DNA of 63,008 bases, the filler included, from Atractiella rhizophila (Eukaryota): assembly GCA_021432655.1 (NCBI GenBank). It is 4 parts of 4 records of this genome, joined end to end, with 100 filler letters (N's around TTAATTAATTAA, not from the genome) between each part and the next. Parts side by side here need not be neighbours in the genome. Positions count along the whole stretch, not along the records: positions 1 to 25,683 come from MU271767.1; 3 more parts are not named here. One strand, written 5' to 3'. The translations under genes and the position numbers were made by a program. Positions 4,630 to 51,476 of this stretch are shown here, piece by piece (within the stretch, counting starts at the first letter, position 1; each line of letters starts with the position of its first letter). The notes below the pieces were generated by a model. That model was not told the origin of the DNA. It made no database searches and worked only from the letters and a program-made list of their open reading frames with translations.

Positions 4630-5968
4630 ATGTCGATGGTTTTTAATGCTGCCGTTTTTGCTGGAGGGATAGCGGTAGGAGCAGCGAGTACAGTCTTGTT
4701 TTCGACGAGGAGAGAGAAGGAAATTGCTCCTCCAGCCCCTCCTCCAGTGCCTTCTCCGACGGTAGCTCCATTACCTAGCAGGGCCTCCCTTGCGCAAACT
4801 AGCGCGTTTGATGCTCTCACTACTTTTGGCGGTAATCCAGGTACTTTTCTCATTGACTTGGAGGGTGGCACTTCTCCAACTGCTTCGTCTAGGGCCGTTC
4901 CACGATCTCTTTGTCCGTCAAGCTTACATTACCTCCTACGACCGAGTACATCGACATCCAGCTTGGACGGCCGAGCATTTGACAGCTTCCTCGCTTCTCA
5001 GGACACCTGCCGTCTCCTCACCGGAGAATGTCTCTTCTTCCAGCGCCGCTGGAGACTTAATCGTTGGTACTGGTACACAACGTGCTGGAAGCCGTGAATC
5101 TAGTTTTTTTCGAGAGGATCCAGCTGTACCTGAGTTGTTCAGGGCAAAGTTGGCAGATTATGCCAAAAGTGGATATGATAGAGGACATATGGTACGCTCT
5201 CTGTCTTCGTTCTTTCAGGTCTTAAAAATTTTCTGATTTTCTGTGAGGTGTTTAGGTGCCTGCTGCAGACGCGAAACGCTCACAATCAGCAATGGACGAA
5301 ACATTTCTTCTCACCAACATCGCTCCTCAAGTCGGGGATGGGTTCAATCGCCACTACTGGGCTTGGGTGGAAGATTTCTGTCGTCGCCTGACGGGCAAGT
5401 TCTCGGACGTCTACGTCTTCACCATCCCTCTCTATCTCCCGCGCCGGGATCCAGACGGAAAGTTTCGGGTGACATACGAGGTGATAGCGAATTCGTCTAC
5501 CATGCCTCCCACGCCAAATGTCAGTGTACCGACCCACTTTGCGAAAGTCATTCTAGCAAATACTCCCTCAGTTGCTGGGGGAAAGGGGGGCGTTGCTCAA
5601 GTTGGACTCGGGTTAGCCAGCATTGGAGCTTTCGTGTTGCCAAACCAGCCTATTCCGGACCAGACACCGTTGAGAGCGTTTGAGGTGCCAGGTTCGTGTT
5701 TTTGCAGTCTCAATATTCCAGTTGATTAATCGTGAGAACGGATGACTAGTTGAAGCCGTAGAGAAAGCATCTGGTGTGCAGTTACCTTCTTCTGCTCGAT
5801 AACCCCTAACCATTGTCTTGGGACGCAGGCTTGACTTTGTTTTCGCCCCAAGTGAAAGCCCAAGCGAAAAAGCTTTGCGACACCACAGAATGCAACGTCG
5901 TTGTGCGACACTTCGACGATGCTGCTAAAAAGAACGATAGAAAGTCATTACCTCCGCCTTCACCATGA
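4630..5968 (+). CDS. NUC1: Mitochondrial DNA/RNA non-specific endonuclease (EndoG/Nuc1)
   Basis: YDRVHRHPAWTAEHLT, SGYDRGHM|VPAADAK, ETFLLTNIAPQVGDGFNRHYWA, VSVPTHFAKVIL. Confidence 0.95.
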
Positions 5969-13107: not shown

Positions 13108-13932
13108 ATGATCAAGGTCAGTCCGTTCGCACCAACGCTGGAGTCATGAGCTGATGTCGGTGGCCACAGATCTGGTCCATGAAAAAGACAGAGGAACAGG
13201 CTTCGAAGAAGAAGCCCAAGACCTCCGCCGCTCAATTGAGGGTCCAGAAAGGCGCGCTGATCCGGTCGTGCTTGGGTGGCGACATGCTGAAAGGGGAACA
13301 CAGATGTCACGGAGCTTGATTTACCTTCAACGATGGAGACGAATTGGCCAGATGCAGACGACCTCTTAAATTTCACGCTCACTATCAAGCCTGACGAAGG
13401 TCTGTCCTTTCCATCAGCTTCACGTACATGCGGGTGTCTGACAGGTTAATCGTGGATAGGCATGTATAAGGGTGGATCGTTCCTCTTCAACTTCGCTATC
13501 AATTCAAACTACCCCCACGATCCCCCCAAGGTCAAATGCGTACCCAAAGCATGTCTTTCCTCGACTTTCCAATGTTCACAGTGGCTAACTGTCACCTCAG
13601 ATTTACCATCCGAACGTCGACCTGGAAGGCAACGTCTGCCTCAACATTCTCCGGGAAGATTGGAAGCCGGTGCTCAATTTGAACAGCGTGATGGTCGGAT
13701 TGCAATACCTTTTCCTGGAGCCAAACGCTGACGATCCTTTGAACAAAGGTTCGTTTCTCTCATTTCTTCATTCTAGATAACACGAAGGAGAGACTAACCC
13801 GTGGTCGTGTGACCGAATGTAGAAGCGGCCAACGACCTTCGACGCGACAGGCAGACGTTCTCTATGAACGTGAAGAATTCATTGAGGGGAGGGAGCGTGA
13901 ACGGGATCGCGTACGATCGCGTCCTTGGCTGA
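13108..13932 (+). CDS. UBC12: NEDD8-conjugating enzyme Ubc12
   Basis: MIK|IWSMKK...[66 protein letters not shown]. Confidence 0.96.
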
Positions 13933-13969
13933 ACCCGTTTCTTCAGCTTTTGATCTTTTTCCTGTTCAG

Positions 13970-14103
13970 CCATTTGCATTTACAAGACGGATATCATCCG
14001 TCAACTTCCTGTCACTCTTGATCTGTGCCCTCCTGTCCAACCATTTGCATTTTACATGACGGATATTATCCCGTCAACTTCCTGTCACTTTTGGATCTGT
14101 GCC
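13970..14103. repeat. Imperfect ~70-bp-period tandem duplication with internal palindrome, downstream of UBC12
   Basis: Copies 13970-14029 and 14041-14103 (CCATTTGCATTT..GACGGATAT..ATCC(C)GTCAACTTCCTGTCACT..GATCTGTGCC). Confidence 0.9.
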
Positions 14104-14270
14104 GTAGATGTCCATATCCTTAATGTTGCCCAAAATCGAAAATTTGTACTCATGAGATTATTGAATCAGATTCGGTACAACCAGGTACAACATCCAAAGC
14201 TACACTTTACAAACACAAGGAAGCTTCTTTGCACCAAACTATCGTTTCGGTGACATGGTCAGAGACCCCT

Positions 14271-15613
14271 TTACGAACCGCGATAAGTCGAGTAAGCGTA
14301 TGGCGCCAGTAACAATGGGATATGATAATGCTCTTCCACGTTCTTGATTTCAAAAGGTATCTATTACAAGGCTGATCAGCATTCGCTGTGAGATCCGGAA
14401 AGTCACACACCTCAACGAACGGATAAAAGCTATGTATGCCTCGTTTGGCGAAATACTCGGCAGTGGAAAATGTAATCTTATAGATTCCAGCGTCGAGTCG
14501 ATGAGTGACAGGCAACAGATCGTTGCACCTTCCTTCCGTCCCAGTAGCACTATACCACATAAGATCCACATATGAATAAAGCGGTGGGAACAACCCACCC
14601 GTCGCCGATGTGGATGAAACCACGTTCTGTCAGTCTCTCCAATCGGATCGTGACTTCTGGAGCTGGAGATCCAGAGGTCGAATCGAGAACTAACAAGTCA
14701 AGTTAGTACTACAGTGTTCTGAAGGGGGAAGATGTACCATGAGCTGTTATTGGGCTCTTTGTCCTGGTCGAGACAGGTACAATGGAAGGCCTATTCACAA
14801 TTGGCGTCAACTACACTCTTTTCCCCCTGACTAACCTAGATTCAACTTTCCTCTTCTTCGCTTCTCGTTCCGCCAAACTCTCCCTCCTCCCGATCAAACC
14901 GCCAGCTAAAGCATCTCCACTCCCCTCTCCAGCATCAACAATACTGCCCCCACTGACACTATTCGCAAGCTGGATCTTCTCCAATTTCTCAAGCTTTCTA
15001 TGCTCGCTCTCGATCTCTTTCTCAGATTGACGGGCTAGGATCCTCTGTCTCTCCGCTTCCGAGATTTGTGGGCAAGAAATACAATGTGTTCGCATACGGA
15101 ACGCTTTAGGTTTATCGACTTGCCAACCACATCTGCTCTGAGAGTGAGGAGTGGGTCGCTGACAGGGAAGGCAGCATACGCTCGACAAGCGGCGTGATCT
15201 TTGTCTCCTTATCTATTGATGAGCAACTCTTCTTCTTATCATAAGAGGTGGTAGCGCACCATCGAAGTATGACCAAATGAAATCTTTGGGCCGTCCACCC
15301 TGCAATGCGACGTTGAACTCTCGTCTCGTCCAATTACATCACAAACAAAGCTCTACTCACGCCATGGGCGTTCTTTCTCGCGCTTGTGCTACCCTCAGCA
15401 GGACCAGGCAAAACATCTATTTCTCCTGGTGTATCCTGGCCATGAAGTTGAGTGTGAATCTGCCCAGCACTTGGGGGCGTTGGGACTTTGATACTGATGT
15501 CCTGGTCGGCTGGAGGAGGGTACGCGAAGGAGCCAAATTGCACTACTTGAACTTCCGATGGTCAGCCAGCATCCTGGACACCGGGAGAAACAAGATTTCG
15601 CACATCGATCCAT
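14271..15613 (-). CDS. BED-type zinc finger fused to transthyretin-like 5-hydroxyisourate hydrolase
   Basis: Spliced: ..NAHG|GGRPKDFIWSYFD|GDKDHAACR|ACGWQVDKPKAFRMRTHCISC..KKRKVESR|PSIVPVSTRTKSPITAH|VLDSTSGSPA..TEGRC..FYPFVE|..HYHIPLLLAPYAYSTYRGS*. The HIUase part is firm; the fusion and start codon are inferred. Confidence 0.75.
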
Positions 15614-16340
15614 AAAATATCCCCTTTCGAAAAGGTTCTAAACCTGGAGAGAGATGTTGCTTGTTTTGCAGACGTTTGGACTGCATTTTGCACGCCAAAA
15701 CACAGGGCAAAATCGGAGCCAGTTTTCCACATGACCTTTTAAAAATCAACGACGACGACTTCGTCCTCTGCCTCTGCGATGCTCGACGTTGTAACAACGT
15801 TGATATTCAACAGAAACAAAGTAGAGAGCAAAGCACAGAGGTTACTATGCTGTCTCCAAAGTGTCAATTTCAGATCAGACAAGGTGTGTTGCTATTCTGT
15901 ATTCTGTAGACCTTGACGGGGCTGTCAAAGTTGTTGAATCCATTCTGTCGACATAAACGCGTTCATAGAGCATGAAAACTGCATGAAAGCTTTGAGGATA
16001 TGAAGTGCTTCCCTTTTCAAAATGCTTTTGGACTTGCCACGTCCGAAGTCAAATTTTAAATCCACCGAGATCTTAAGGCACTTGAGCATGGGACGTTTCC
16101 CTCTTCTTTGGAGAGGAAGAAATGTTCCACCAGCCTTTCAAGCTGGTTGTTGCTCTTGTTCTGAGTCATAACCTCGGAATATCGTATACATCTTGATGCT
16201 CCACTCTGGGTCTTCTGCTGTCCTTTATCGAATTTGGTAGCAGGACTGCCAGTGTGAGATGTGACATCCTAACATGTATTTCATATTTTAGATAAAAGGA
16301 ATATAATGAAAACCGATGAATTCTTTCCTGTATTCCGTAC

Positions 16341-17877
16341 TTATTTAAGGTATCGCGCAAGCGCGACAGCGGATAGACAGGTGACTACAGCAGCCCAGAT
16401 GATTGGGGGACTAAAATTCATGAGACGCGCAAAGCTTTCCGCCGCCTGAGGTCCCATAACTCTCTTCAAATTGTCACTACTTTCTTGTGCCGCTGCCTTC
16501 GCTCTTTTCAGCATCTTCTTTTCGAATCCTCCGATGGCCTTCAGCAATACGGGAGCTAAATCTTCAGTGTCCCTTACGGTGTGAGTGGATATGGAGTCCA
16601 AACTATTCGCCAAGTCAAGAGCATCCGCCATGGCGAGGTTCACACCTTCTCCCGCGAAAGGACTCATGAGATGGGCACTGTCTCCTATGAGAGTTACCCC
16701 AGCTTGAGATTCCCATGTGGCGCCAATGGGGAGAGCGTAGATGCCGCGTTCGGAGAGCTCGTCTTCCGCCTCGTGAATCAGGCGAAGGGATTCTTCACAC
16801 CATCCTTCGTATTCTTTCAGAAGCTCTTCTTTATTGGCTGATTATACGGTTAGGTAAGAAGATGCAGGTCGCCGAGCTTACAAGATCTCTCTGCTCCTGG
16901 TTGGTATGACGGAACAATCGTCGCACAATATACCTTCGTGTAATTACTCATCTGTGATGCAATGAGTCCCTAGGCAATGTTAGCTTGTTGACGAAGAATA
17001 TCAGTCAACTGTTCACCTTTCCCTCCCCAAGGATGAAAGTCAGACCTGAGCTGACAAACGCCCGAGTCTGACTACTTGGTTTCGTGATGTTAACTTCTAC
17101 AAACTGTACAAGACATTAGACGAATGAAATCAGAAGGGGAGTGGAATGGATACCTTGACGCCACTGAAAATAGGCTGCAGGTCATTCCCCAACAAAGAGC
17201 GGACTCTGGACCAAGCTCCATCAGCGCCAATCAGAATGTCGACTTCCTCGCTTGTCCCATCTTTGAAATCCAGAATATGCCTAAGCTGTGATCCTTCTGC
17301 CCGACGAGCAGACAGGAGGGATTTGTTCCAAACGATAGTTCCTTCGTTTAAACTGCGCAGCAGAATATCTCTCAACTGTGGCCTGAACCGGTCATTCTCA
17401 ATAGAATGTTAATTGCAAACCGAATTGAACTGACCTATCAATTTCTGGGCGGCCAAAAAAGCGACCCAGTAGAGGCTGCTTTTCGTCGTAATGCACCTTC
17501 CCGTTCTTATCCACAATCTTCATGCCTTGATCTTCGTATCTCGCAAGTTGCTTGAACTCTTCGAACAAACCGCATGCCTTCAGCGCGGCCTGTCCAGAAT
17601 TGACGTGAAGGTCTAAGCTTCCGCCCTGCGTACGTGACGATGAAGAGATTTCTCGCTCGTATATTTTGACTGCGTCCAAGTTCAAGGATGACAACAACAA
17701 TGGGAGGAGAGAGTTCAACATACCATCCGTGAATCCTTTCAGCTGCAGTAGCCGCGCTAGGGTCGTACCTGTAATACTTTGTCAAATTGATATGGCACAG
17801 CCCTGCCTGCATGAAAGAAATCCACCAGCCGGACCAGCTCCCACAATTCGCACTCGCAAATCTCTGGCACTCAGCAT
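16341..17877 (-). CDS. FAD-dependent monooxygenase, TetX-like (group A flavoprotein)
   Basis: IVGAGPAG|TTLARLLQ, YERE..RTQGGSLDL, RPEIDR, DILIGADGAWSRVR, GDSAHLMSPFAGEGVNLAMADA; hydrophobic C-terminal tail. Confidence 0.9.
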
Positions 17878-18684
17878 CTCCAGTAAGTTAGTCCCTTGAA
17901 GTATTTACTATTGGTGGTATCGATTGTTGATGCCTGAGACTTCGTCCTTCCCTTTTGTTTGCCTTGCCCACAGGCAGGTGACTCGGAATCCGACTCGACG
18001 TGGACTGAAGGACTGAAGTCCTAGTAGCGGTGTCCAGCCTTTGGAAAGGGAGCAAATAGTCGACTTTGGCCGCGCGAATACCACATTCCCGCAGTCTGAA
18101 GTGCCTGTAAATAGCAACCGCGCAATCTGAAAGTTAAAGTGCGAAAGTCGAGCCAGACAGCCTCTGGGCTTTTCGTGGCACTTCGCACTTTTTCGACTTT
18201 TGAAAACACGCGTGAACAATGCAAATCTCAGGTCTACAATCCTAACTTAGCTCCAGACCTCCTCTCTTCCTCTCCTTTTCCACAGTCATGAGCACATCAG
18301 ATCTCTATTATCAACAAGTTCAGGGCGGGAAGAGCATGGCAGCTCTTTAGTTTACAGTGTCATCAACATGTCTGAGATCTTTATATGAACAGAAGGTTGT
18401 AAAAGAGTGCGAGTTGGGCTGTTAAATCACAAATTCCGTGGTCACCGCGTTTGTGCAACTCCTGGTACCATTGAGGTCCCTCCAGTGAGGCAGGAACCTC
18501 TTCGGACTATCCCAAGCACCATCCAATATCACGCTCTTTCGACTTTTCCATTTTCGAGATTCTCAAAGCCAGCGATATTTTGGACACCGCAAGTGAGGTG
18601 TAGAATAAGAAGACATCTTTGTCATTTCAGTCTGTACATGTGGCTCGTCGTGCATGAAATTCGAACTTGATTTTTGAAATACAA

Positions 18685-23786: not shown

Positions 23787-24562
23787 ATTGTTTAGATCTA
23801 ATGCTTGACTTGTGTCTGAAGAAGTCGATAGAGCGAGACGCCACTTGACAATAGCTTGCGCACACATCCTTTTATATCTTCGCTCTCGGCAGGACGGGAT
23901 GAGGACTGCTCCATCACTGGCCTGAACTACCGCTAGCAGTGGGGGATCTACTCCTATCTTGCCATCCAATCGAGAGACAGAACGTCATCTCCTCTCTGCT
24001 TTCGCTCCGACTCCTGGTTTGATCGATGCAATGACAGAATATTCGGATATTGATCATGTCTCCCATTCACATCCCCCACTCGACTTTGGAGGCGGGGGAA
24101 ACAAACGTGAAATTCACAGTAACGATCTTCCCGCTTCGAGTGTGATGCAACGGGTGTAACGGAGCTGAGAAATCATTGACAGTTCAAACGTGCACTCAAG
24201 CTCAGAGCAAACGCAAATGGACTGGAAAAGGTAGTGAAGTTTACTCGAAAAAAGAAAGGAGGGGATGCCAAACTTCTTGACCCGAGTCCCCATTAAAGCG
24301 TAAATCAACTTATCTATATTTCCAACTCCAGCCTGCAGGCCTGAATCCTGTCAACGGGGAACCCAAGTTCGAGTTTTGAATTACCACAATCTCATAAAAG
24401 AATTGTTAGGACAACAATGCTGCGTAGAAACAAGGGTTAAATATTATTATGGTTCGGATCGATCTTCGCATCTTTTGCCCCGACAAAATTTTCAGCTGGT
24501 TTTGTCAACTTCATTTCAGTGCTGACCTTTCGTGTCCTCGGCAGGCTTTTGGGGATATTAAC

Positions 24563-25683
24563 ATGAAGAAGTCAAATTCTCTCCAATGGAAGCCCGTAAC
24601 AGTTGCCTTTGACGACTCTGATCCCAATTTTACCTTCGACTTCGATGAGATCTCTGATGTCGAAGTGGAGTGGGAGACCTTCGACAGCGGAGCAAAAAGA
24701 GCCAAGCTGAAGCCAAAAGGGAGTCGCACTATCAGCGGGGATTTAAAACCATCAGAGCATGTCTCGGGAACTGCTGAAATCGGCGAGGATGAGGCAGGAG
24801 CTAGCAAGAAGGGGAAGAAGAGGAAGCGGGTCAAGAACAAGGATGGAGAGGAGGGTCCTGGTGGGAAGAGCAAGAAGCAGAAGGTTGATAAAAGCACAAG
24901 TGAGCCCTCAATATCACCCACAGAGGAAATTCCATTGGGTTCTCTCTCTCCTCTCGAATCATGGCCTGAACTCCCGACACATCTCCACTCTGCCATCTCC
25001 AAGCTCTCGTTCACGCAACCGACGCTCATTCAATCATCACTCGTCTCCCATCTCCCTCTCAAGCACGATGTGATTGCTACGTCTCCAACTGGAAGTGGAA
25101 AGACTTTCGCATACATGCTTCCCATCCTCTTTCACCTGTTCTCCTCGGAACCTGAAGCCCCTGAACGATCTCTCGCTCTCATCATTACTCCTACCCGCGA
25201 ACTCGCCATACAAGTTGCGGATTCTATGCAGCGAGTTCTCGACGCTTGTACTCCTTCATCCAAAGGCCACAAGAAAATCGTCACCGTAACCGGTGGATTA
25301 GCCATTCAGAAACAGAGTCGGTTGATCAATGCTCAACTGCTCGGAAAGAAGGAAGGAATACTTGTTGCCACGCCTGGAAGGTTATCAGAGATGCTGGAAG
25401 AGTTAGATGGGCTCGAAGAAAGATTGCAGAGGACGAGATTTCTAGTACTTGACGAAGCGGACAAATTGGTTGAGAAGGGCAAATTTGAGGAGCTAGAGAG
25501 GATATTGCGAATCTTTCAGAGAAAAGAGGATGAGGAGGATGAAGAGGCAATTGGAAGAGAGGATGACGGTTTAAGAACCCTGGTTTTAAGCGCCACAATG
25601 GAGAAAGGTCTAATGGGCAAGTTGGGGAAGAAGAAGTTCAAGCGATCGACTGGCTCCACAACCTTAGGTTTGTATTTCCGTTA
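24563..25683 (+). CDS. DEAD-box RNA helicase, Mak5/DDX24-like (3' truncated at contig end)
   Basis: LQWKPV N-terminus, FTQPTLIQ, PTGSGKT, PTRELAIQV, GGLAIQKQ, ATPGRL, LVLDEAD, SAT. Confidence 0.85.
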
Positions 25684-25783
25684 NNNNNNNNNNNNNNNNN
25701 NNNNNNNNNNNNNNNNNNNNNNNNNNNTTAATTAATTAANNNNNNNNNNNNNNNNNNNNNNNNNNNNNNNNNNNNNNNNNNNN
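25684..25783. other. Artificial contig linker N44-TTAATTAATTAA-N44
   Basis: 100 nt with a six-frame stop cassette; genes on both sides are truncated. Confidence 0.97.
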
Positions 25784-26106
25784 TGTGCCCCACGAGCTTT
25801 CCAAATGGTCAGCAACAGTGTCGATGAGTAAATAGGTGGCGTACCCGATGGGCCTGAGAGGTAACTCACAAGAGAGGAACTTTCAGCAACGAGGCTTTCT
25901 CTCATTTCCTCAGCCATTTCATGGTCTTCTAGCAAACGGGAAATCAGTAGGGTGAGCCAGTCTAAGGTGTATTTTCGTTCGAAGTCATCTAATCCGCATT
26001 GGATACTGGTATTCAACTGCTTCAACGTCCTCGAGATGTCAAAGCTGAGCTCGTTTTGAAGAGCTGGAAGGAAAACACTTGGTGCGGTCTTGAACGTAGA
26101 AGTCAT
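25784..26106 (-). CDS. N-terminal fragment of putative SAM-dependent protein methyltransferase (Efm2-like), cut by the contig end
   Basis: APSVFLPAL..DDFERKYTLDWLTLLISR..LVSYLSGPSG resembles the N-terminus of basidiomycete Methyltransf_16 proteins; catalytic domain not in window. Confidence 0.5.
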
Positions 26107-26519
26107 CGAGCTTCGAGTAACATGAGCATTTTTTCCAGGTTACTGGGCTCCTACCTGGGGTCACAACCAATAAATTAGACGACGATATGGATCGAACTTG
26201 GAAAAGCGTTCTTGAGTGGGCACGTGATATAAAACGACGAAAATTTTCAGTGCTGGTCCAGTGCTGGCTGTTCACAACGTTCACATCTCACATTGACCTG
26301 GTCCCCCATCTCCTCCACGAGACGTTGCCTCAAATTGCTCATGACCAATTCCTGGGTAACATTTGAATGCCAGCTACTGTGCGAATGGGCGGGGTTGGGA
26401 CGTCGAAGTGTTCTGTACGGAAATTGGAATGTTCAAGGTTGACGATCACGAACTCAGTGGCGGGTAGATCATAAGTGGGCAGTCTTTTGTGAGTATTGTG
26501 CTCCATTGCTTAGTTTGGA

Positions 26520-27294
26520 AGTTGTTATATCTAGAGTGCGAGTGTTGCGACCTCGATGACCACAAGACAGTTCTTGCAACACGACTGCTCCTGTTCGATC
26601 TGTTATTACTTTGCATGAACTACCAAGATGACAAGGCATTAACTGGCAGTAAAGAGAGTTTGACGAGAGTGAAACCTAGGAATTGATTGCAGTTCTCTTG
26701 CATCCGAGTCTACCTTGCGTATTTTCTGAGATTCTGAGGAAGCTGTCGCCGCTCGCCTGTTTAGGGCCGCTTCATAGTCAATGAAGAGCTGTGACTGGAA
26801 TGCCGTTGTTTCCTCTCCGCCGGATAAATTGTAGGAAAAGATGCAGATTTGCTCGATTGCCGGTTAGAGATTCTCTCAAGTCGAGTTGTCTTCATGAGGG
26901 TATATTTGGTCTACGCCTGATGTGGGAGTAAGATTCATACCGCGGAAAAATACTCTTTGTTGAAATCTGCGAGTGACTTCATTGCTGAAATTAATGGAAG
27001 CCCAACGGAGAAGCTTCAAGCCCTGATCGGGTCGGCCAAAGCCGGTTCGAGTGGTGGCAGAAAGGTTGCACCTCGGAGTACTCTGGTCTTTCGAATCAGT
27101 GACAGTCGGGCATCCACAGGGGCTTTGCTCGCTAGACTTTGTTCGGGACGCAGAGAAGGTGATTTCAGCAACCGTATCACCTCATGAGCCGAAATCAGTT
27201 CTTCGGAGTATGGAGGATGTGAGAAATGGTTCTTGCGGTCCGTTAATGATTCTTTTCGTCCTTCCCGACGCTCTCACTTGAGTCTCTTTGCATT
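26520..27294. CDS. Hidden multi-exon hypothetical gene, readable only as the plain complement left-to-right
   Basis: Complement gives LTLTTLELLVFCQERCADEDKLDNNETYLMVLLFRNLT|intron with ACTAAC..TAG|AQMERIKDSK..IPAKYQLLLDTD..EYSALVKK..ELRET*; exon joins not fully resolved. Confidence 0.55.
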
Positions 27295-27368
27295 TGCATG
27301 ACTGGTGATTGTAGAGTCGTGTATATGTGTTACGCTTTCAAATTCTGTTAACTGTTACATTGATGCAT

Positions 27369-28175
27369 AATCCCTACAGGCAAATTCACTGGGTACTCGC
27401 GGACGTCAACTCCTCCCAGCAAAGGACATAGGTTTTCCGTTCTCCTGCCCTTCGCAAGGTACTCGTTGACTTTGCAATGGAGGAGGTAGACTATACCACT
27501 TCGGTTTAGTGTTCTGCCGTACGAGCCGCCGACGCAAACGCAGTACTTCCAACCGCTCCGTCCCCTGACTTCGCCACTGTACTAACCTCTACCGCGCCGC
27601 TCACGGGGACCTTCCAATTCTTTAACACTACTTCTCCCTCTTCACAGCGACGACACATGACTTCTTAAACTTCCCGAACCACCTCGCTTCTCTATAACAC
27701 TGGGCTGACCTTGATCACCGTACGCTATTCTGCCCTATCTTCCATACCCTATCCTCCCTGTTGTCGCCCCTGCACCCCCTTGCTCCCTCAGTTGTTGACC
27801 TAGCCGTACTGTCACAAGGTAGGTCGATCCGTTTGTTTGTAGTCTAGGTACCAACTCCAGTAAATCGAAGGTGGAGCGCTTGACTGGTAGTAGAAGCGAC
27901 CAACCTCTTTAAAAGACTCCTTGGAACGTTTGGAACCAACTGAAACCACCTCCCTTCTGCGTCAACTAAAGACGGTGTGACACTGGAGCAACACGGCTCA
28001 TAGCTTACGTCCTATTCGTCTGGATATGGTGCTTCAACTGTGTCCTTCCTATAACTGCTCGTGCTCGTCCTAGCGAGTGACCAAACGGTTGCGTGAACTA
28101 AAAGACCGTACCGTACTCGTCAACTCTGACCAAAGTTGTTCACGAATGAGAAAGAAACGTCTTCATTGTCCGGTA
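27369..28175. CDS. Hidden Zn2Cys6 transcription factor, readable only right-to-left without complementing
   Basis: From 28175 backwards: MACYFCKER|gtaagc..cag|KIKCVGKP|gtgagc..tag|VCLSCIRYSAQRGHSVAEINCVFP..Ser/Pro-rich..GHLNGHP*. TATATAA about 75 nt upstream in the same reading. Confidence 0.85.
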
Positions 28176-28805
28176 GGATTGGGTGTTGCTGAATACCTTA
28201 ACTAGGAGACTCGTTATCATTCCTCGCCTACACTAAGGCCTCGTTAGGAATATATTGCTGCTCGTCCGTCGAGCCTGATGAATTGAAAATCTTCTTCGTG
28301 TCCAATGTTATTCCAGGGGAATACGTTTCAACTAACTCAACGTCGGCGCTGTTAGACTAGCTTCAGCGCTCCTCCAACGCGAACGCGTGGAAGCTCCACC
28401 CCCTTTTGTGCAACCACCTGTCTTGTTAGATGCCTACATCGGGCGAAGATGACAGAAATGATATCGGTGGTGTTGGTCAAGACTCTACGGTACTTTCGCA
28501 GGTGTCGCGGTTTAGGGTCTTAGGGTCCTCTATCGTTGTAAGTGGAACGAGTCGAGCTTATAACACGTGATCAGAGTCGTCATCAGCGTCGGGGGTTTGG
28601 TTGAACTGGATTATTGGCGGGCCTATACCTCTGTGCAGCGTAGAGGTTCTGGTACCAATTAGTGCGTTTAGCGCTCGTGCGCAAAATAGTCGAACCTCCT
28701 CCTTTCGGAACGGTCATTTAGGTACCTGTCCTGACACAGCCTTCATGCAGGAGCATGCGACCGAATCGCGGACTGTTGGTTCTTCAAGCTCCTAGGAGTC
28801 TTTCG

Positions 28806-29061
28806 NNNNNNNNNNNNNNNNNNNNNNNNNNNNNNNNNNNNNNNNNNNNNNNNNNNNNNNNNNNNNNNNNNNNNNNNNNNNNNNNNNNNNNNNNNNNNNN
28901 NNNNNNNNNNNNNNNNNNNNNNNNNNNNNNNNNNNNNNNNNNNNNNNNNNNNNNNNNNNNNNNNNNNNNNNNNNNNNNNNNNNNNNNNNNNNNNNNNNNN
29001 NNNNNNNNNNNNNNNNNNNNNNNNNNNNNNNNNNNNNNNNNNNNNNNNNNNNNNNNNNNNN
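28806..29061. other. 256-N gap lacking the linker cassette
   Basis: Counted Ns; separates the two reversed blocks. Confidence 0.97.
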
Positions 29062-30349
29062 GTCTAGGCCACTGTACTCACTACTCTCCGCCAAAAAGTT
29101 TCTCTGCTCACTGCCACTGTACAGCTCCTAGAGAACTAGCTAAACGAAGAACACCTACATTCCTGCCTACAGCTCGCTAAGTAGTCACGCCTAATCATAG
29201 AACGGCTAGACACACACATTTGAACGTACTCAGATGGTGAAGCGTCTTTCCTCTCGTTGCCCCTGTTTGTACATTCAATAGCTACTGGCGAACTTGTCGT
29301 AGAGGCAATGAGGGGCCTCAGCGCGAGTTTCGGTCGTGAGACTTGAAAGGCGGTAAGGGTACGTAGTTGGAGGAGTGATAAGGCCACATTCGTATCAAAG
29401 GACATCGAAATACTCGGAGTAGCTGCTGGTTTGTCTGTTGCAAAGACCCTAGATTTTAAGGCAGGAACTCTAGTAAGAGATACCAGACGCCACAGCGCTT
29501 TTCTTGAGAGAACTTTAACAATCTTCAACCTAGCATTGTGCAGGAAGACTCTACTCGCCGGCAGAAGGGGCAATCGAGGGGTGTCACAACTCCTCCCTAT
29601 GGGCGCTACCTGTCTGTTCGAAGCTAAACAACTCGTTGCTCTCCTGCCCATCCACGTCACTTCTACTGCTAACGCCAACCTTTGGTCGCTATCATCAAGT
29701 CGTACTCTCGTCGTCGATGCTTACAGAAAGGCTCCGGTCAGCCCTCCCTCTGTTCCCACAACAACTCCTAACGCCGCCGGTGCTAACAGAAAACTATCAG
29801 CGCCTGGACCATAAAGCCCACGCACCCCATCTGGTCTCAGAACTAGCGAAGAAGTAGACCTCTCACAAACTCTCAGTACCTGCCTAGTTTACCTCCCTCG
29901 CACTACAGGAACAGACCACCAGGTGCCACATTCCGAGGTAGGAGTAGGAGACTACTAGGTCGTCTGGTAAGGCCTCCCAGCCTCTTTCGGTATCGGAAGG
30001 GGAAGGGAAAGACAGAGGGGCAGGTAAAAGGGAAGGGGAAGACGCAGGGTGAGGGTGGGTATGAAGGAGGTTTGCTGAGTGAGCGTAAGACTCTTCGTCG
30101 TTGGAGTCGTCGAACTCTCCGCGAGCCCAAGGTAGAAAACAAGTGGTGGTGTAACTGTAAGAGGAAAAGAAAGGGTGGTAGTAAGTGGACACGGGCGCGG
30201 GCTCGAACTCCCTCATCTCAGACAGCACTCCATGAGCGCCAGCCGACACCTCGGACAAACCGAAATGCTTACCGGAGGGAGAGGTTCCGAAGGTCCAGAA
30301 GCAAACGTTTTAGTTGCAGCAGACTCTTTAGTATCAGACTTCTAGGGTA
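29062..30349. CDS. MPH1: 5' half of Mph1/FANCM helicase, readable right-to-left from ATG at 30349
   Basis: MGSSDYDFSDD..VRDYQ..NTLVSLPTGLGKTF..NYYRWFP..APTRPLVAQQ..TPQTIENDL..LVVDEAHKATGNYAY..LALSATPG..VIDNLH|61-nt GT-AG intron|IGKILIRTDESLDI..SSLMSPDL. Confidence 0.97.
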
Positions 30350-30920
30350 GAGTCGCGCCTCCAGCCACCGCAGTTGCAGTTCCAAAACACCACCAAAGGA
30401 ACTCCTGTTGTGTATGGTGCGCATGCTGCATTCTTGTTACTGAGCTGGTACTTGGAAGCTCTCGGGTCGTCTTCCTCCTTTACTCCAAAGATATTTCATT
30501 CAAGACAACCCGACAACCTCCGTTGTTCCGCAATATGTAGACACTCAGAAACGTCATGACATAGAAGTTCAGTTCAACCCTGTAGTACTAAACGGTCACG
30601 TATTACAGATCTTCTTAATGTTACAAGACTTGCAGTCAACGCAGTGCCACAACAAAACCCTCTGCTCTTACATCCTCCTTCAAGTCTTCCATCTAAGTTC
30701 GTAAGAGTAATTGAAGGCGGAAAGGTACAACTAGTAGTAATGTTGACCTCCGAGACTCTTTGAAGGTCGTCCGAGTTCTACGTTGCACTAAGGAGCAATA
30801 CGTATCACTATGTGAGCGGGGAGCAAGGGGCATGGACGAGTTCCGCATAACTGTTGCTGCTCGTCTTCCGGCACCTCTCAGCTCCGACACAGAGGACCAC
30901 AACTTTTCCACGCTTTATTA
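29062..30920. other. Reversed (non-complemented) sequence block B; right edge 30920-30923
   Basis: Right-to-left reading encodes MPH1 motifs and joins in frame to forward sequence at 30921/30924. Confidence 0.97.
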
Positions 30921-33900
30921 GTGAACACACTCCTTGGTCGCGGTATCCTCCATTGCTCAAGCGATCCTGAACGTCTCGCACCATTCACGGTTCAACAAGC
31001 CCAAAGCGGCTGCTTCGGTCGTGGCGCTAACCCAGCCAAGAAAGCAGCCATTCGACCGCTCCAAAACCTTGGAGCCATGGCGAGAGCGATGGGGTATTTA
31101 TGCGATGAGAGTGTGAAGATGTCGTTAGCGACTTTGAAGGGACATTTTCTGGAGGGGAAGAATAGTGACCAGAAGCAGATGAAGGAAACGGCGGGGAAGA
31201 AGGAGTTTAAAGAGCTTATTTCTGATATGGAGGAATACGTGAAGGATCCTAATTATGCGGGTCACCCAAAGATGGAGAAACTTGTCGCGCTGGTACTGGA
31301 CCATCTCGCAAACTCGACAGAGGAGACCAAGATCATCGTCTTCGCCCAATTCCGGGATTGTGTCGATGAAATTGTTGACCTTCTCGAGAAGCAAAAGCCA
31401 TTGGTGAAACCGGCGAGATTCGTCGGACAGGGAACTGATAAGTCTGGGAAGGAGGGTATCAAGCAGAAGGATCAGAAGGAGGTGATTAAGAGGTTTAGGA
31501 GGGGTGAATTCAATACTCTTGTCGCCACGTCCATTGGAGAGGAAGGCCTCGATATTGGGGAAGTCGACCTCATTATCATCTATGAAGCGCAGAAGTCACC
31601 TGTGAGGATGGTGTGTTCCTCATTCCAATGAGTCTTATCACTCTAGCAAAGTTGACTGATGGATGAGTAGCTTCAAAGGATCGGACGAACCGGTCGTGCG
31701 CGTGATGGGCGAATTGTGGTGCTCATGACGAAGGGACGGGATGAAAGTAACTGGGCGAAAGCACAGGACAACTATCAGCATGTCCAAAATGCCATCACGT
31801 CAGGCAAACTCTTTGAACTCTATGGGGATGTTGCGCGTCTCATACCAGACAAAGTCAAGCCCGAACTCAAGGAGGAAGTTATTGTTGCCAGCGAATTTGA
31901 TCCGGCCATGGTAACGGTCACAGCGAAGAGCATGAAGGCTCCTAAGGGGGCAGTCGGGGCGAAGAAGAGCAGTAAGAGATCAGTACCACAGGGAACCATA
32001 ACTGGGTTTATGAGCGCGAAGGGGTTGTTAGAAGAGATGGAGGGGAGGTCAGGAGGGAAGAAGAGAAAGAGAGCTGAGATGGAGGACGACCCGAGGCTGA
32101 ATGGAGAGCACATGAAGGAGTTCGAGAAATGGTACATGCCTCTAAAGGGCAAAAAGCCGCCACCTTCCGATCGTGTCTCGAGAACGTTCGATGTGTCCAT
32201 GGACGCATCCAATCGAACATTCGTCATTTCTAACCATTCGAGGAGCTTTGAAGCCATACGCCGCATTTTTGGGGAGAGTGGACCAGGAACAAAAGCGGAG
32301 AGCTGGAAAGCGGCTTTGGCCGGACATTGGGATGCAGCTGAACCTTTTGTAGAGTATGTGGAGGAGAGGGAGGAGGAGGAAGAGGAGAGGAAGGGGAGGC
32401 TAGAGAGGAGGAGGAAGCATAATAGAGTGGAAGGGAGAAGATGGAAATACGTAAGACCTTATCTCGGAGAGAAGAAGAAGAAGGAAATCACCTCAGATGC
32501 GGATGCGGACAAGGATGGAATGGGCATTTTGGATGACGAGGAGGAGGAGCCAGCGGGGTGTATGGACAGAGGCAAAAGTAGTTCTGGGTTTGGAAAACAC
32601 GCTGGCAAGCAATATGTCAATCCGTTCAAGATGCCTGCAATTCAGGAGAAAGACGAGTCGACGGATTGCGAACTACCCGATTTTGGCGGATCAAAATCCA
32701 TGCTTTCTATCTCAGTTTCTCCTCCAGGACGTCGAACTCCCAGTGAACAGCGTAACAACACCAGGCGGAATGACATTATCGTCCTTGACTCCCCTCCTCC
32801 AACTCCCGAAGCAATCAAAGGTCTCACAATGGATCTTGACCCCGACGGAGACGAAGAGGATGGGGAAGACCAATTTCGCGACCAAATGACTGGGATTCAC
32901 CCCTTTGGCCATTTCGATTCTTCCCCAATGCCTAGGGGAGCCGACGAACTCTCCCGACCAGTCAGCCCTACACAGTCCGTGTACCTTTCTCCTGTTTCAA
33001 AAGCAGGAAAGCGCTCGCGATCGCTACAGAACTCTGCAGAAAGCAGGAAAAAGCGAAAGCTGCCAGAGTCAATGGATATCGAGGAAGTATTCCTGGCGCA
33101 AGGTTCGGCCATCCGACCTGCTGACGCTGAACAAATTGCATCAGTGGATCCTTTGATACCTGCAGACACGATCCCGATTGAAGTTGATAAAGGCTCCCCC
33201 CCACCAGTATTCAAGGTCCCTTCCGTCCCTAGATCTGTCAAGACACCAAATCACGGCAAATATATGACATTCTCGCAAGGGTCGATGGGCTTTGATGACG
33301 ATTTCGACGTGGATGATCTCGGCGATTCAATCCTGCAACAGCTAGATCGCAGTGACACTCGACTGGCGGCGACATCGACCTCTGGCAGCAGAAAACTGAT
33401 GAGGACACCACTTTCCGCAGTTGATGGACGAGGGCAACAACCACTCTCCGTTAAATCCATTAATTCTCCTCTCGATTTCTCACAACCTGTCATTTCCCTT
33501 CGCCGGACATCGATACACTCTCTCCAAACGCAGTCACCATCCTTCGAACTCTCTCAGCCTGTTATTACACATAGGAGGCAGAGGATTCCGCTTCAAGAAG
33601 AAGTGGAGGGAGCAGACTCCTCACCTGGAACATCCCATCAGGAGGCAGTGAAAGTGTTCCGCCTGAGGAAAGCTCGCAGTAATTCTCCCTCCTCTTCGGC
33701 TGCAGTTTCTGTCATCGAAAAGGGGAAGGGGAGGCAGCGGCAGAAGCCGAAGCGCACGAGGGAGGAGAAGGAGAGGTTGAGAAGGAAGCTAGAGAGAGCA
33801 ATGATGGATATGGAAGCAGTGGATTCAGACGTGGACGCTGGAATTCTCCATAGCTCAGACGATGACGATGCAGCAGACGTCAATGAAGGTTCCTCAGATA

Positions 33901-49168: not shown

Positions 49169-51376
49169 ATGGATTCTCTCCCGCGCTCGCGATCACTGCG
49201 ACGACTGTACTCCTCTTCAGACGCAGAAACGACTTCGAAACTTCTCCAAAGGACAGGTAAACGACCTGGGCAGAACTTAGCGGATGCTGCAGCACAAGCG
49301 GAATGGAATGAGAAGAGATGGGTTTGGGTACCTGATGAGAAGGAGGGCTATATCGCGGGTTGGATAATACAAGAGGAAACGGTGGAGAACGAGAGAGGGG
49401 AGATGGAAGAGGTGTGCACTGTGGGAATGGTTAATGATCAGGTCTGTACTTCTTTAGTAATATCCTAGATAGGTGTAGAAGGGTTGGTAGACTATTGTGT
49501 TGCCTACAAACGCTCTGAGCAAGGCGAATCCCCCCAAATTCGACAAAGCAGAAGACATAGCGGACTTGACGTTCTTGAATGAAGCCAGCGTTGTTCATAA
49601 TCTCAGAAGACGCGCTGAGGGTGGAATGATTTATGTGCGTTTTACCTTCTACTCTGGCCACCATGTGCAGTTCTGATCAAATATGCAGACGTATTCTGGA
49701 CTTTTCTTGGTCGCTGTGAATCCATACCATGCTTTGCCCATTTACACAACCCCTGTTGTGCAACGTGAGCAATACTTTGAACTTGATTTCCCTTCATGTT
49801 AATTCCTTTATGTAGAATACAAGAGTCGCCGACGAGACGAGAACCCGCCTCACATCTTCGCGATCGCAGAACGAGCATGGCAGAACATGGTGGGCGAGCG
49901 CGAAGGGCAATCTATTCTCATCACCGGCGAGTCTGGTGCTGGAAAGACTGAGAACACGAAACGCTGTATTCAATACCTAGCGGCCATCGCATCTGACTCG
50001 TTACCCACGTCGGGTTCAGCCAATTCCATTGGAGACCGCTCGAGACCTACAACTCCCACACACAGTCGGCCCGACTACGGTGCTAAACGCCTCGGCTTGC
50101 TAGAACGGCAGATCCTGCAGGCTAATCCCATCCTCGAAAGCTTTGGAAATGCTCAAACTGTTCGAAATAACAACTCATCGCGATTCGGAAAGTTCATTCG
50201 AATATTTTTTACGAGTTCGGGCAGTATTGCTGGTGCCAATATCGACTGGTACCTGCTGGAGAAGAGTAGAGTGACGAGCAGACCCGAATCAGAGAGGTGT
50301 TTTCACATCTTCTACCAACTTTTACGAGGCGCCAAACCAGAGCTCAGGAAGCAGCTTTTATTGGACGGAGATGTTGGAGACTATGGCTATTTGAAGGGGA
50401 GCAGGAGGGATGTGGACGGAGTGGATGATGAAGTAGAATGGAGACTCCTCCAAGATGGACTTGATACGGTCGGTTTTTCCGAATCCGAGCAGATGGACAT
50501 GTTCCGGGTAATCGCTGCCATCCTGCACATGTCAAACATCGACGTCTCTTCGGATCGTTCGGACCAGGCACTTATCAAGGACAATTCTCACGTTGAGAAA
50601 GTCTGTCATCTGCTTGGTTTGAGAGTGGAGGAGCTCAGTAAAGGACTGCTCCGGCCGAAGGTCAAGGCTGGAAGAGAATGGGTTACGCAAGCCAGGTCTA
50701 GGAGCCAGGTCATGGACGAAATGGCAAGTTTATGCAGGACACTTTACGAGAAGAACTTTGGCCATCTGGTGGAGCGGATTAATAAAGCCCTTGATCGGCC
50801 CAATTCGAAAAGCACCTTTATTGGCGTTTTGGATATTGCTGGTTTTGAAATTTTTCAGACCAATGGTAAGATAACCTGTCCGTGTGCTTCCGTATCAACT
50901 AATGGATGATCTAGGTTTTGAGCAGTTGTGCATCAACTTCACAAACGAAAAGCTCCAGCAATTCTTCAATCACCACATGTTCGTTCTTGAGCAAGAGGAG
51001 TATGCACGTGAATCTATTGAATGGGATTTCGTCAACTTTGGCCTTGATCTTCAACCAACTATCGACCTCATCGAATCCACCCACCCCGTTATAGGGATCC
51101 TTAGTTGTCTTGATGAAGAATGCATCATGCCAAAGGCAACTGACAAAACGTTTGTTCAGAAACTGCACGACTTAGTCAAATCTCATGGAGAGCCGATCTC
51201 TACCAAGTACGCTCCTGCAAGATTTGACCAGGGATTCTCGGTCAAACACTATGCGGGGACGGTGGAGTATCGCACGGATGGATGGCTAGAGAAGAATAAG
51301 GATCCTCTCAACGACAACCTGACATCTCTTCTCGCCAATTCCTCCGACCGCTACGTGGCGACTCTTTTTGCTGAAT
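49169..51376 (+). CDS. Myosin type II heavy chain, motor domain (3' truncated)
   Basis: [76 protein letters not shown]. Confidence 0.95.
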
Positions 51377-51476
51377 NNNNNNNNNNNNNNNNNNNNNNNN
51401 NNNNNNNNNNNNNNNNNNNNTTAATTAATTAANNNNNNNNNNNNNNNNNNNNNNNNNNNNNNNNNNNNNNNNNNNN
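51377..51476. other. Artificial contig linker N44-TTAATTAATTAA-N44
   Basis: Same cassette as 25684. Confidence 0.97.

Follow-up and report, generated by a model that had tools for sequence, protein, structure and literature searches.

A BED-like zinc finger probably joined to a complete 5-hydroxyisourate hydrolase in Atractiella rhizophila, red yeasts and rust fungi

Introduction

The 5-hydroxyisourate hydrolases (HIUases) already described in fungi are small enzymes. Uro2 of Cryptococcus neoformans is a 122-aa protein with a single domain whose deletion slows growth on uric acid, and the tetrapeptide YRGS is the signature that parts HIUases from transthyretins (PMC3646786). Here we describe a gene found in a stretch of 63,008 nucleotides (filler included) of the Atractiella rhizophila assembly GCA_021432655.1. 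We call this whole stretch the window; its positions 1–25,683 come from record MU271767.1. The gene has multiple exons, is located on the minus strand at 14271–15551, and is probably one real gene for a protein with two modules, a BED-like finger with its helix and a complete HIUase, with a finger-only isoform besides.

Like Uro2 and UaX of Aspergillus nidulans, the window enzyme belongs to the HIUase family, has YRGS and the substrate-binding residues, and would act between urate and allantoin; unlike those two, which are single-domain proteins of ~120 aa, it has ~200 N-terminal residues more, with a finger and a helix, and no start of its own (PMC3646786). In the allantoin synthase of plants an OHCU decarboxylase lies N-terminal to the HIUase. 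Both proteins have the HIUase at the C-terminus and both come in isoforms, but the partner in plants is the next enzyme of the pathway, whereas here it is a zinc finger (PMC3646786, PMC13691922). A plant-type allantoin synthase was discarded, since no OHCU decarboxylase appeared among the 15 families found for 30 relatives or in the exon open reading frames (ORFs) of the window. Bacterial trigger enzymes such as PutA and BirA unite enzyme and DNA-binding module in a single polypeptide; they serve here as a model for the coupling of metabolism to transcription, although they are not homologous to the window protein, whose regulatory role is conjectural.

A full-text search, with subscription journals outside its coverage, found no paper on the fusion or on the finger family, and the orthologues already stand in public databases under the names 'hypothetical protein' or 'hydroxyisourate hydrolase'. 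What appears to be new is a conserved fusion of an HIUase to a folded BED-like finger, with a choice of isoform at the junction.

Gene structure and transcripts

Splice sites were set from the sequence first and then compared with RNA contigs assembled from the four runs (X1, X2, X18 and X19) that had the largest shares among the 19 holding part of the stretch. The introns are short, between 45 and 61 nt, and all seven that had been predicted were found in the contigs as GT-AG joints (CT..AC on the plus strand; Table 1). The finger half and the HIUase half are one spliced transcript. Actually, a single X19 contig goes from exons 14599–14687 and 14738–14790 into the finger/helix exon, and the joint that links both halves extends on its shorter side over 52 letters in X19, 26 in X18 and 27 in X2. 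An earlier note on this DNA had proposed that the finger and HIUase exons are spliced together in frame, with the junction around 14835/14790 as the check; this joint is present in contigs of three of the four runs (X18, X19 and X2) and the proposal stands.

Translated along these joints, the finger reads GGRPKDFIWSYFD / GDKDHAACRA / CGWQ... across two introns, with the pattern C-x2-C-x14-H-x3-C, and its second half, CGWQVDKPKAFRMRTHCISC, is located at 15131–15072. The linker in exon 14836–15132 is rich in Gly, Ser and Ala and is followed by KKRK (14858–14847), the end of the exon reading KKRKVES. Farther upstream, an X18 contig spans 15360–15551 and is joined to 15299. The exon at 15551–15361 codes for a stretch of low complexity that ends in ...ARKNAHG ahead of GGRPKD, like the basic run that precedes GGRP[KR]D in the relatives.

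Table 1. Features and splice joints of the gene, with the evidence for each.
Feature	Position	Strand	Evidence
Hypothetical first coding exon, ATG 15686 in CAAAATG context	15644..15686	-	inference; no RNA contig over the exon
Upstream exon, low-complexity N-terminal region, finger frame open, no in-frame ATG	15361..15551	-	X18 contig
Exon GGRPKDFIWSYFD: basic GRP motif and aromatic W..F motif	15260..15299	-	joints to both neighbours
Micro-exon GDKDHAACRA with the first zinc-ligand Cys	15180..15207	-	joints in X18, X19, X2
Exon with second finger half, long charged helix, low-complexity linker, KKRK	14836..15132	-	translation, homologues
Link intron, 45 nt, alternatively retained	14791..14835	-	spliced and unspliced contigs
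First HIUase exon RPSIVPVSTRTKSPITAH, without Met	14738..14790	-	translation
HIUase exon VLDSTSGSPAPEV...	14599..14689	-	PF00576, 15.6 bits alone; joints on both sides
HIUase exon with DGR(C) arginine motif	14411..14549	-	PF00576, 39.4 bits, E 1e-9; joints on both sides
Last HIUase exon, ends HYHIPLLLAPYAYSTYRGS, stop TAA 14273-14271	14271..14360	-	PF00576, 42.2 bits, E 1.4e-10, positions 83-109 of 109
3' untranslated region	13971..14270	-	X18 contig from 14360 down to 13971
Joint	14360/14411	-	X18, X19, X1
Joint	14549/14599	-	all four runs
Joint	14689/14738	-	X18, X2; X19 equivalent joint with two extra letters
Joint (link intron)	14790/14836	-	X18, X19, X2
Joint (intron 15179-15133)	15132/15180	-	X18, X19, X2
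Joint (intron 15259-15208)	15207/15260	-	X18, X19, X2
Joint (intron 15360-15300)	15299/15361	-	X18, X19

The hydrolase half

When the exon ORFs were scored singly against Pfam PF00576 (cut-off 25.3 bits), three of them matched, two above the cut-off and one, taken alone, below it. The window protein has the HIUase signatures ...ITAHVLD, DG..GRC, EHYHIP and YRGS, and it ends in ...STYRGS followed by the stop. In the Rhodotorula paludigena orthologue (P0019) the last 111 residues align with HIUases of known structure from E. coli, zebrafish and Salmonella (2igl, 2g2n, 2h1x and 2gpz) at E values of 5e-23 to 3e-22, the transthyretins coming at ~1e-12, and conservation between the orthologue and these HIUases includes H, DGR, EHYH.P and YRGS. 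Which of the HIUase residues are catalytic reportedly comes from the structure papers on PucM and the zebrafish enzyme. Very probably the domain works as an enzyme in the breakdown of urate and forms a tetramer, as all members of its fold do.

There is not a single Met in the four HIUase exons, the linker and the helix, the last one in frame being ATG 15095. Because the HIUase exons lack a Met, the enzyme of this locus must, on the predicted translation, be translatable only as part of a longer protein. Both points had been raised in the earlier note, an intact HIUase (N-terminal His, Arg, second His and YRGS) and exons without an ATG of their own, and they agree with the PF00576 matches, with the residues present and with the spliced translation.

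Two products from one intron

The link intron (14835–14791) begins with GTTAGT, ends in AATAG, contains a TTGAC branch-like site and, when removed, joins its exons in frame. It is also found unspliced in contigs of X18 (14764–14864), X1 (14750–15154) and X2 (14783–14879); in X19 the spliced form alone is seen, and in X1 the unspliced one alone. In X18 no unspliced contig is listed for any of the other six introns, and in X1 a contig at 15191–15332 also retains upstream introns. Since the link intron is both spliced and retained in the contigs, the locus has two outputs, the fusion and a finger-only form that ends after KKRK. Retention leads to an in-frame TAG at 14813–14811, eight codons past the exon boundary, as had been foreseen for a finger-only isoform with its stop at 14811, and the translation of this form has 207 aa with the hypothetical first exon counted in. 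In X18 the contig with the intron unspliced had a depth of 475 and the joint one of 202; we claim no ratio from these values, since contig depth cannot rank the forms. One X2 contig (depth 2.96) joins 14789 to 14850, skipping 60 nt with ends CC..TT, i.e. the link intron plus 15 nt of exon. This joint is in frame and non-canonical, and may be the allele of another strain or an artefact of assembly.

A conserved family in red yeasts and rust fungi

We have searched for relatives of the window protein with the finger/helix exon (exon C) against 1.84 billion representative proteins. There were only five matches, among them a spurious one (P0002, a PYRIN-repeat protein) and a 425-aa protein of Microbotryomycetes with the same finger followed by PF00576; against longer proteins the exon had no match among 679 candidates. 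A profile built from six finger sequences, with a threshold of E up to 0.01, retrieved 44 proteins, 27 of them carrying PF00576, and a scan of 30 relatives found this domain in 25 (best E 1.3e-37). Every named match belongs to the Pucciniomycotina (lineages were checked for two genera). On the yeast side these are Rhodotorula, Rhodosporidiobolus, Sporobolomyces, Pseudohyphozyma and other Microbotryomycetes, and among the rusts Puccinia triticina, P. graminis, P. striiformis, Austropuccinia and Phakopsora.

In 26 database proteins the PKAFRM[RK] finger is combined with YRGS at the C-terminus, and the order of the parts is constant in all of them: a disordered N-terminus (~85–270 aa), a basic run, GGRP[KR]D.VW..F, the finger C..C.W....PKAFRM[RK].H...C, a charged helix, a linker with KK.K[RK], and then ...SPITCHVLD...YRGS. 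The window protein shares this order with its database orthologues (342 aa in Rhodotorula toruloides and 316 aa in R. paludigena, besides those of Puccinia and Phakopsora) but differs from them in having no Met before the HIUase part, a link intron of 45 nt and a long branch of its own (1.58 in a tree of the finger and HIUase segments of 24 proteins). It is placed outside the rust and Microbotryomycetes clades, its identity over 194 columns does not exceed 56%, and the placement is unsure. For a full-length orthologue AlphaFold2 gave pLDDT values of 91–97 at residues 91–168 and 87–96 at residues 201–310, with disordered stretches of low confidence before and between the two modules.

The 17 matches without PF00576 are short models with unconserved tails (in four named species), pieces from short contigs and a finger-only subfamily (P0004, P0009 and P0044–P0047). 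The members of this subfamily have the PKAFRMR finger, the helix and KKKRKK and no HIUase; their C-terminus is conserved (...SNWNLSSFLG) and their layout is like that of the intron-retained isoform of the window. Two Puccinia striiformis models of 625 and 825 aa (P0035 and P0037) also have PF16575, and one of them PF06807, upstream of the finger, which is probably an annotation merge with a neighbouring gene.

We have also scanned metagenome contigs and detected 15 finger loci, four of them cut by the end of the contig within 314 nt past the finger. Eight of the remaining 11, which have at least 700 nt downstream, show HIUase exons on the same strand downstream of the finger (L001, L002, L004, L005, L006, L008, L009 and L011). 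The most divergent loci, L013–L015, have no HIUase exons within 780–1090 nt. Several of these loci are near-duplicates and represent about five or six lineages. The metagenome loci have an intron after ...SPITxH, the same position as that of the 14737–14690 intron of the window. The fusion is not a one-off, being shared by at least 26 database proteins and eight metagenome loci, and it is an old conserved family present in red yeasts, in rust fungi and in the separate lineage of this organism.

Differences between strains

The four runs gave 22 exonic letter differences that we have mapped onto the reading frame. They were mostly synonymous (17 of 22), and the five replacements were all located in the low-complexity linker, codons 139–164. 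In the upstream exon, the finger and the helix, all five differences were synonymous. These counts speak for translation of the finger frame, and for constraint on it, in this species group. Two of the differences (15466 and 15433) are located in exon 15551–15361 and, as both are synonymous in the finger frame, they suggest that this exon is translated in it as well.

The zinc finger

The BED finger signature consists of Cx2C...Hx3-5[H/C] after conserved aromatic positions, and the window protein has W..F ahead of its C-x2-C-x14-H-x3-C, i.e. residues at the signature positions. In 25 relatives GRP[KR]D..W..F and the Cys and His positions are invariant, and all the invariant residues of the family (G, R, P, D, W, F, A, C, C, W, PKAFRMR, H and C) are kept in the window. 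AlphaFold2, run on the alignment of orthologous fingers, gave a pLDDT of 83.5 and a model with a short helix over W..F, three short strands with the two Cys and, further on, a helix with PKAFRMR.H...C followed by a long helix of 27 residues. The four top PDB matches found by Foldseek were all BED domains (ZBED2 2djr, ZBED3 9l4j_E, ZBED1 2ct5 and ZBED3 12dl_KA), and the BED domain of the Hermes transposase (8eb5) came at rank 47. Similarly, 23 of the 30 named neighbours in a language-model comparison (Atlas) were zf-BED or zf-BED_2 clusters, the best of which scored 0.92 and had 179 of 256 features in common.

Compared with the BED fingers known (PF02892, ZBED1/2/3 and Hermes), the finger of the window family has the same W..F, CxxC and H-x3-C on a helix and, in the predicted models, what may be the same beta-beta-alpha core with an N-terminal extension. 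It differs from them in its Pfam score, in lacking a transposase, hATC or other usual partner, and in PKAFRM[RK], which is specific to the family. None of the 30 relatives showed a transposase or a hAT dimerisation domain next to the finger, and no AT-hook was listed for them at E up to 1. An origin of the finger from a domesticated transposon, raised as a possibility in the earlier note, would be speculative. The consensus of the AT-hook is an R-G-R-P core flanked by basic residues, and we rejected this identity because the GRP core here is without the first Arg (H-G-G-G-R-P-K-D in the window and K-K-G-G-R-P-R-D in relatives). A basic run of the KK.K[RK] type is present in the linker of nearly all the 27 fused proteins. 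The peroxisomal PTS2 pattern, applied as a regular expression, had no match in these 27, a weak negative.

Weighing the two-module gene

Several observations speak against one gene for a two-module protein, and they regard the surroundings of the gene, its junction, the identity of the finger and the start codon. As for the surroundings, no other purine-catabolic gene was found among the 65 window ORFs scanned (those of at least 110 aa or near the gene).

At the junction, L004, L005/L006, L008 and L009 have a link intron after KK.K[RK] of ~112–188 nt (splice sites read by eye), i.e. 2–3 times longer than the neighbouring introns. With its GTGAGT donor, this intron would on retention run at once into a TGA in frame, and an ATG is found one to three codons past the acceptor. 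In the proteins of Microbotryomycetes / Sporidiobolales a Met located 7–11 residues before SPITCH is conserved, and in the yeast relatives the enzyme might also be made on its own. The long link intron together with the Met looks like the relic of a junction between two genes that were once separate; in the window the intron would have shrunk to 45 nt and, as the Met after it is gone, the fusion would have become obligatory. A rival reading is that the two halves are separate adjacent genes, now or recently, and that the fused mRNA comes from read-through splicing; what functions would then be a protein of the finger alone and, in relatives, an HIUase that begins at its own Met. The finger-only gene models of four named species, the finger-only subfamily with its own C-terminus and the unspliced link form assembled in three of the four runs go in the same direction. 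However, the 45-nt link intron of the window is too short for a terminator plus a promoter, its HIUase exons are untranslatable without the fusion, the spliced joint is found in three runs, and the frame is kept over the junction in 26 database proteins of two classes as well as in the window; conjoined neighbours are for these reasons an unlikely explanation.

The second set of observations affects the identity of the finger. Pfam zf-BED (PF02892) remained below its cut-off of 20.6 in every one of the 30 relatives, reaching 12–13 bits in 10 of them (best E 0.07, profile positions 1–24 of 44), and the unspliced finger pieces of the window matched no Pfam family. The finger profile retrieved no BED chain from the PDB sequences: alignment A1 had 0 matches and A3 a single unrelated one (bL32m, E 0.19). 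The Foldseek matches to BED domains were weak (E 0.31–0.54). The zinc module might, then, not be a DNA-binding BED domain and serve instead in binding protein or RNA or in targeting, the whole being an HIUase that is localised or scaffolded. ZBED3 in the oocyte SCMC / cytoplasmic lattice accounts for two of the four best structural matches, and by their titles these entries are protein assemblies. We give this reading a low probability, as W..F, CxxC, Hx3C, the basic GRP flank and the modelled order of the fold match BED fingers, and BED is at the top of the rankings by both structure and feature clusters. The motif and the two rankings favour the BED-type finger claimed in the earlier note, and the Pfam threshold and the PDB profile search do not. 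The finger is quite probably a divergent BED finger; we call it BED-like and, because its Pfam score is below the cut-off, we do not file it under PF02892. That it binds nucleic acid, probably DNA, in the nucleus has in our judgement a little better than an even chance.

The third set regards the start of the two-module protein. There is no in-frame ATG upstream of the finger in the RNA-supported exons; the first one is 15095, inside the finger (AFRMRTH), and the 5' exon contains three out of frame, 15443, 15416 and 15365, all in poor contexts (T, T and C at −3). ATG 15443 opens an ORF of 8 codons, and 15416 and 15365 open ORFs of ~70 codons that end inside the helix exon. As starts, 15365 or 15416 were discarded because past the 15361/15299 joint they continue in another frame and give a ~70-aa peptide without the finger. 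The boundary at 15613 implied in the earlier note fails too, since ATG 15613 is out of frame with the finger. In the finger frame there is a TGA at 15564–15562, just upstream of exon 15551–15361.

The best conventional solution, offered as a hypothesis, is a missing first exon that begins at ATG 15686. Its donor at 15644/15643 would open a 92-nt intron (15643–15552) with a CTGAC branch-like site, and the phase fits. The putative acceptor AG (15553–15552) is the exact end point of the X18 contig, which is only a hint, and the lack of contigs over 15552–15795 in the four runs neither supports nor excludes the exon. The protein so obtained has 323 aa and begins with MQ, as many of the yeast orthologues do (316–342 aa). 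Otherwise, initiation may be at a non-AUG codon or a leader model may apply. This last model, with the finger exons as a long 5' leader, the start at ATG 15095, an HIUase extended only by helix and KKRK as product and the finger as a relic, has in its favour that this ATG is the sole one in frame in the RNA-supported exons and that gene predictors picked the equivalent Met in several relatives (P0008, P0044–P0047), but it is improbable given that the finger frame is open through four exons, that all invariant family residues are intact, that the five strain differences upstream of codon 131 are all synonymous in the finger frame, that scanning past five ATGs would be needed (15443, 15416, 15365 and 15132 out of frame, and 15262 in the frame of 15416), and that an upstream exon is plausible, its ATG 15686 being in a good context.

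Neighbouring genes

Downstream, a convergent gene on the plus strand coding for a ubiquitin-conjugating enzyme (PF00179, 13589–13780) ends near the 3' untranslated region of the fusion gene, in the region 13450–14270, and the contigs of both genes meet at ~13903–14141. The upstream neighbour, on the minus strand at 15796–17900, is a FAD-dependent monooxygenase (PF01494, 16341–16841 and 17130–17408). Contigs at 15796–16100 resemble its 3' end, and this leaves ~250–280 nt for the promoter of the fusion gene. Elsewhere in the window (4766–5729, 24428–31631 and 49803–51432) there are ordinary fungal housekeeping genes with short introns, namely an NS-type endonuclease, a DEAD-box helicase, a myosin head, L7Ae, NAC, a DNA polymerase subunit B and a sugar transporter.

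Possible function and significance

In the two-module account that we favour, the N-terminal half consists of a disordered region, the basic motif GGRPKD, a C2HC finger with the BED signature, a charged helix and the KKRK linker, and the C-terminal half is a complete HIUase with every signature residue of the active enzymes. KKRK may act as a nuclear localisation signal, as suggested by the families. An HIUase tetramer would carry four fingers, i.e. it would be a tetravalent DNA-binding enzyme, and the finger-only isoform would be the monovalent version, a non-enzymatic competitor or partner.

How such a protein might work is more speculative. It could be a trigger enzyme through which the flux of urate breakdown bears on the expression of genes, the finger-only isoform being its competitor or partner, a proposal that we regard as doubtful. 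The earlier note had likewise imagined a sensor or regulator of the urate pathway, a role that is speculative. Less likely still would be a metabolite-coupled switch present in several basidiomycete lineages, in which regulated retention of the link intron selects between a nuclear BED-like DNA-binding protein and the same protein attached to a tetrameric HIUase that senses HIU or urate; this second form would then control purine or nitrogen catabolic genes. If true, red yeasts and rust fungi would share, in this switch, a conserved trigger enzyme of eukaryotes.

The finger family (GGRP[KR]D...C..C.W...PKAFRM[RK].H...C) has no annotation, and in many gene models the finger is split or cut short. 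For the window gene, the correct annotation hinges on its start codon. To our knowledge, few regulators have been identified for the purine catabolism of basidiomycetes. Should the finger bind DNA, the protein would be a candidate regulator of this pathway and a rare eukaryotic fusion of an enzyme with a DNA-binding module.

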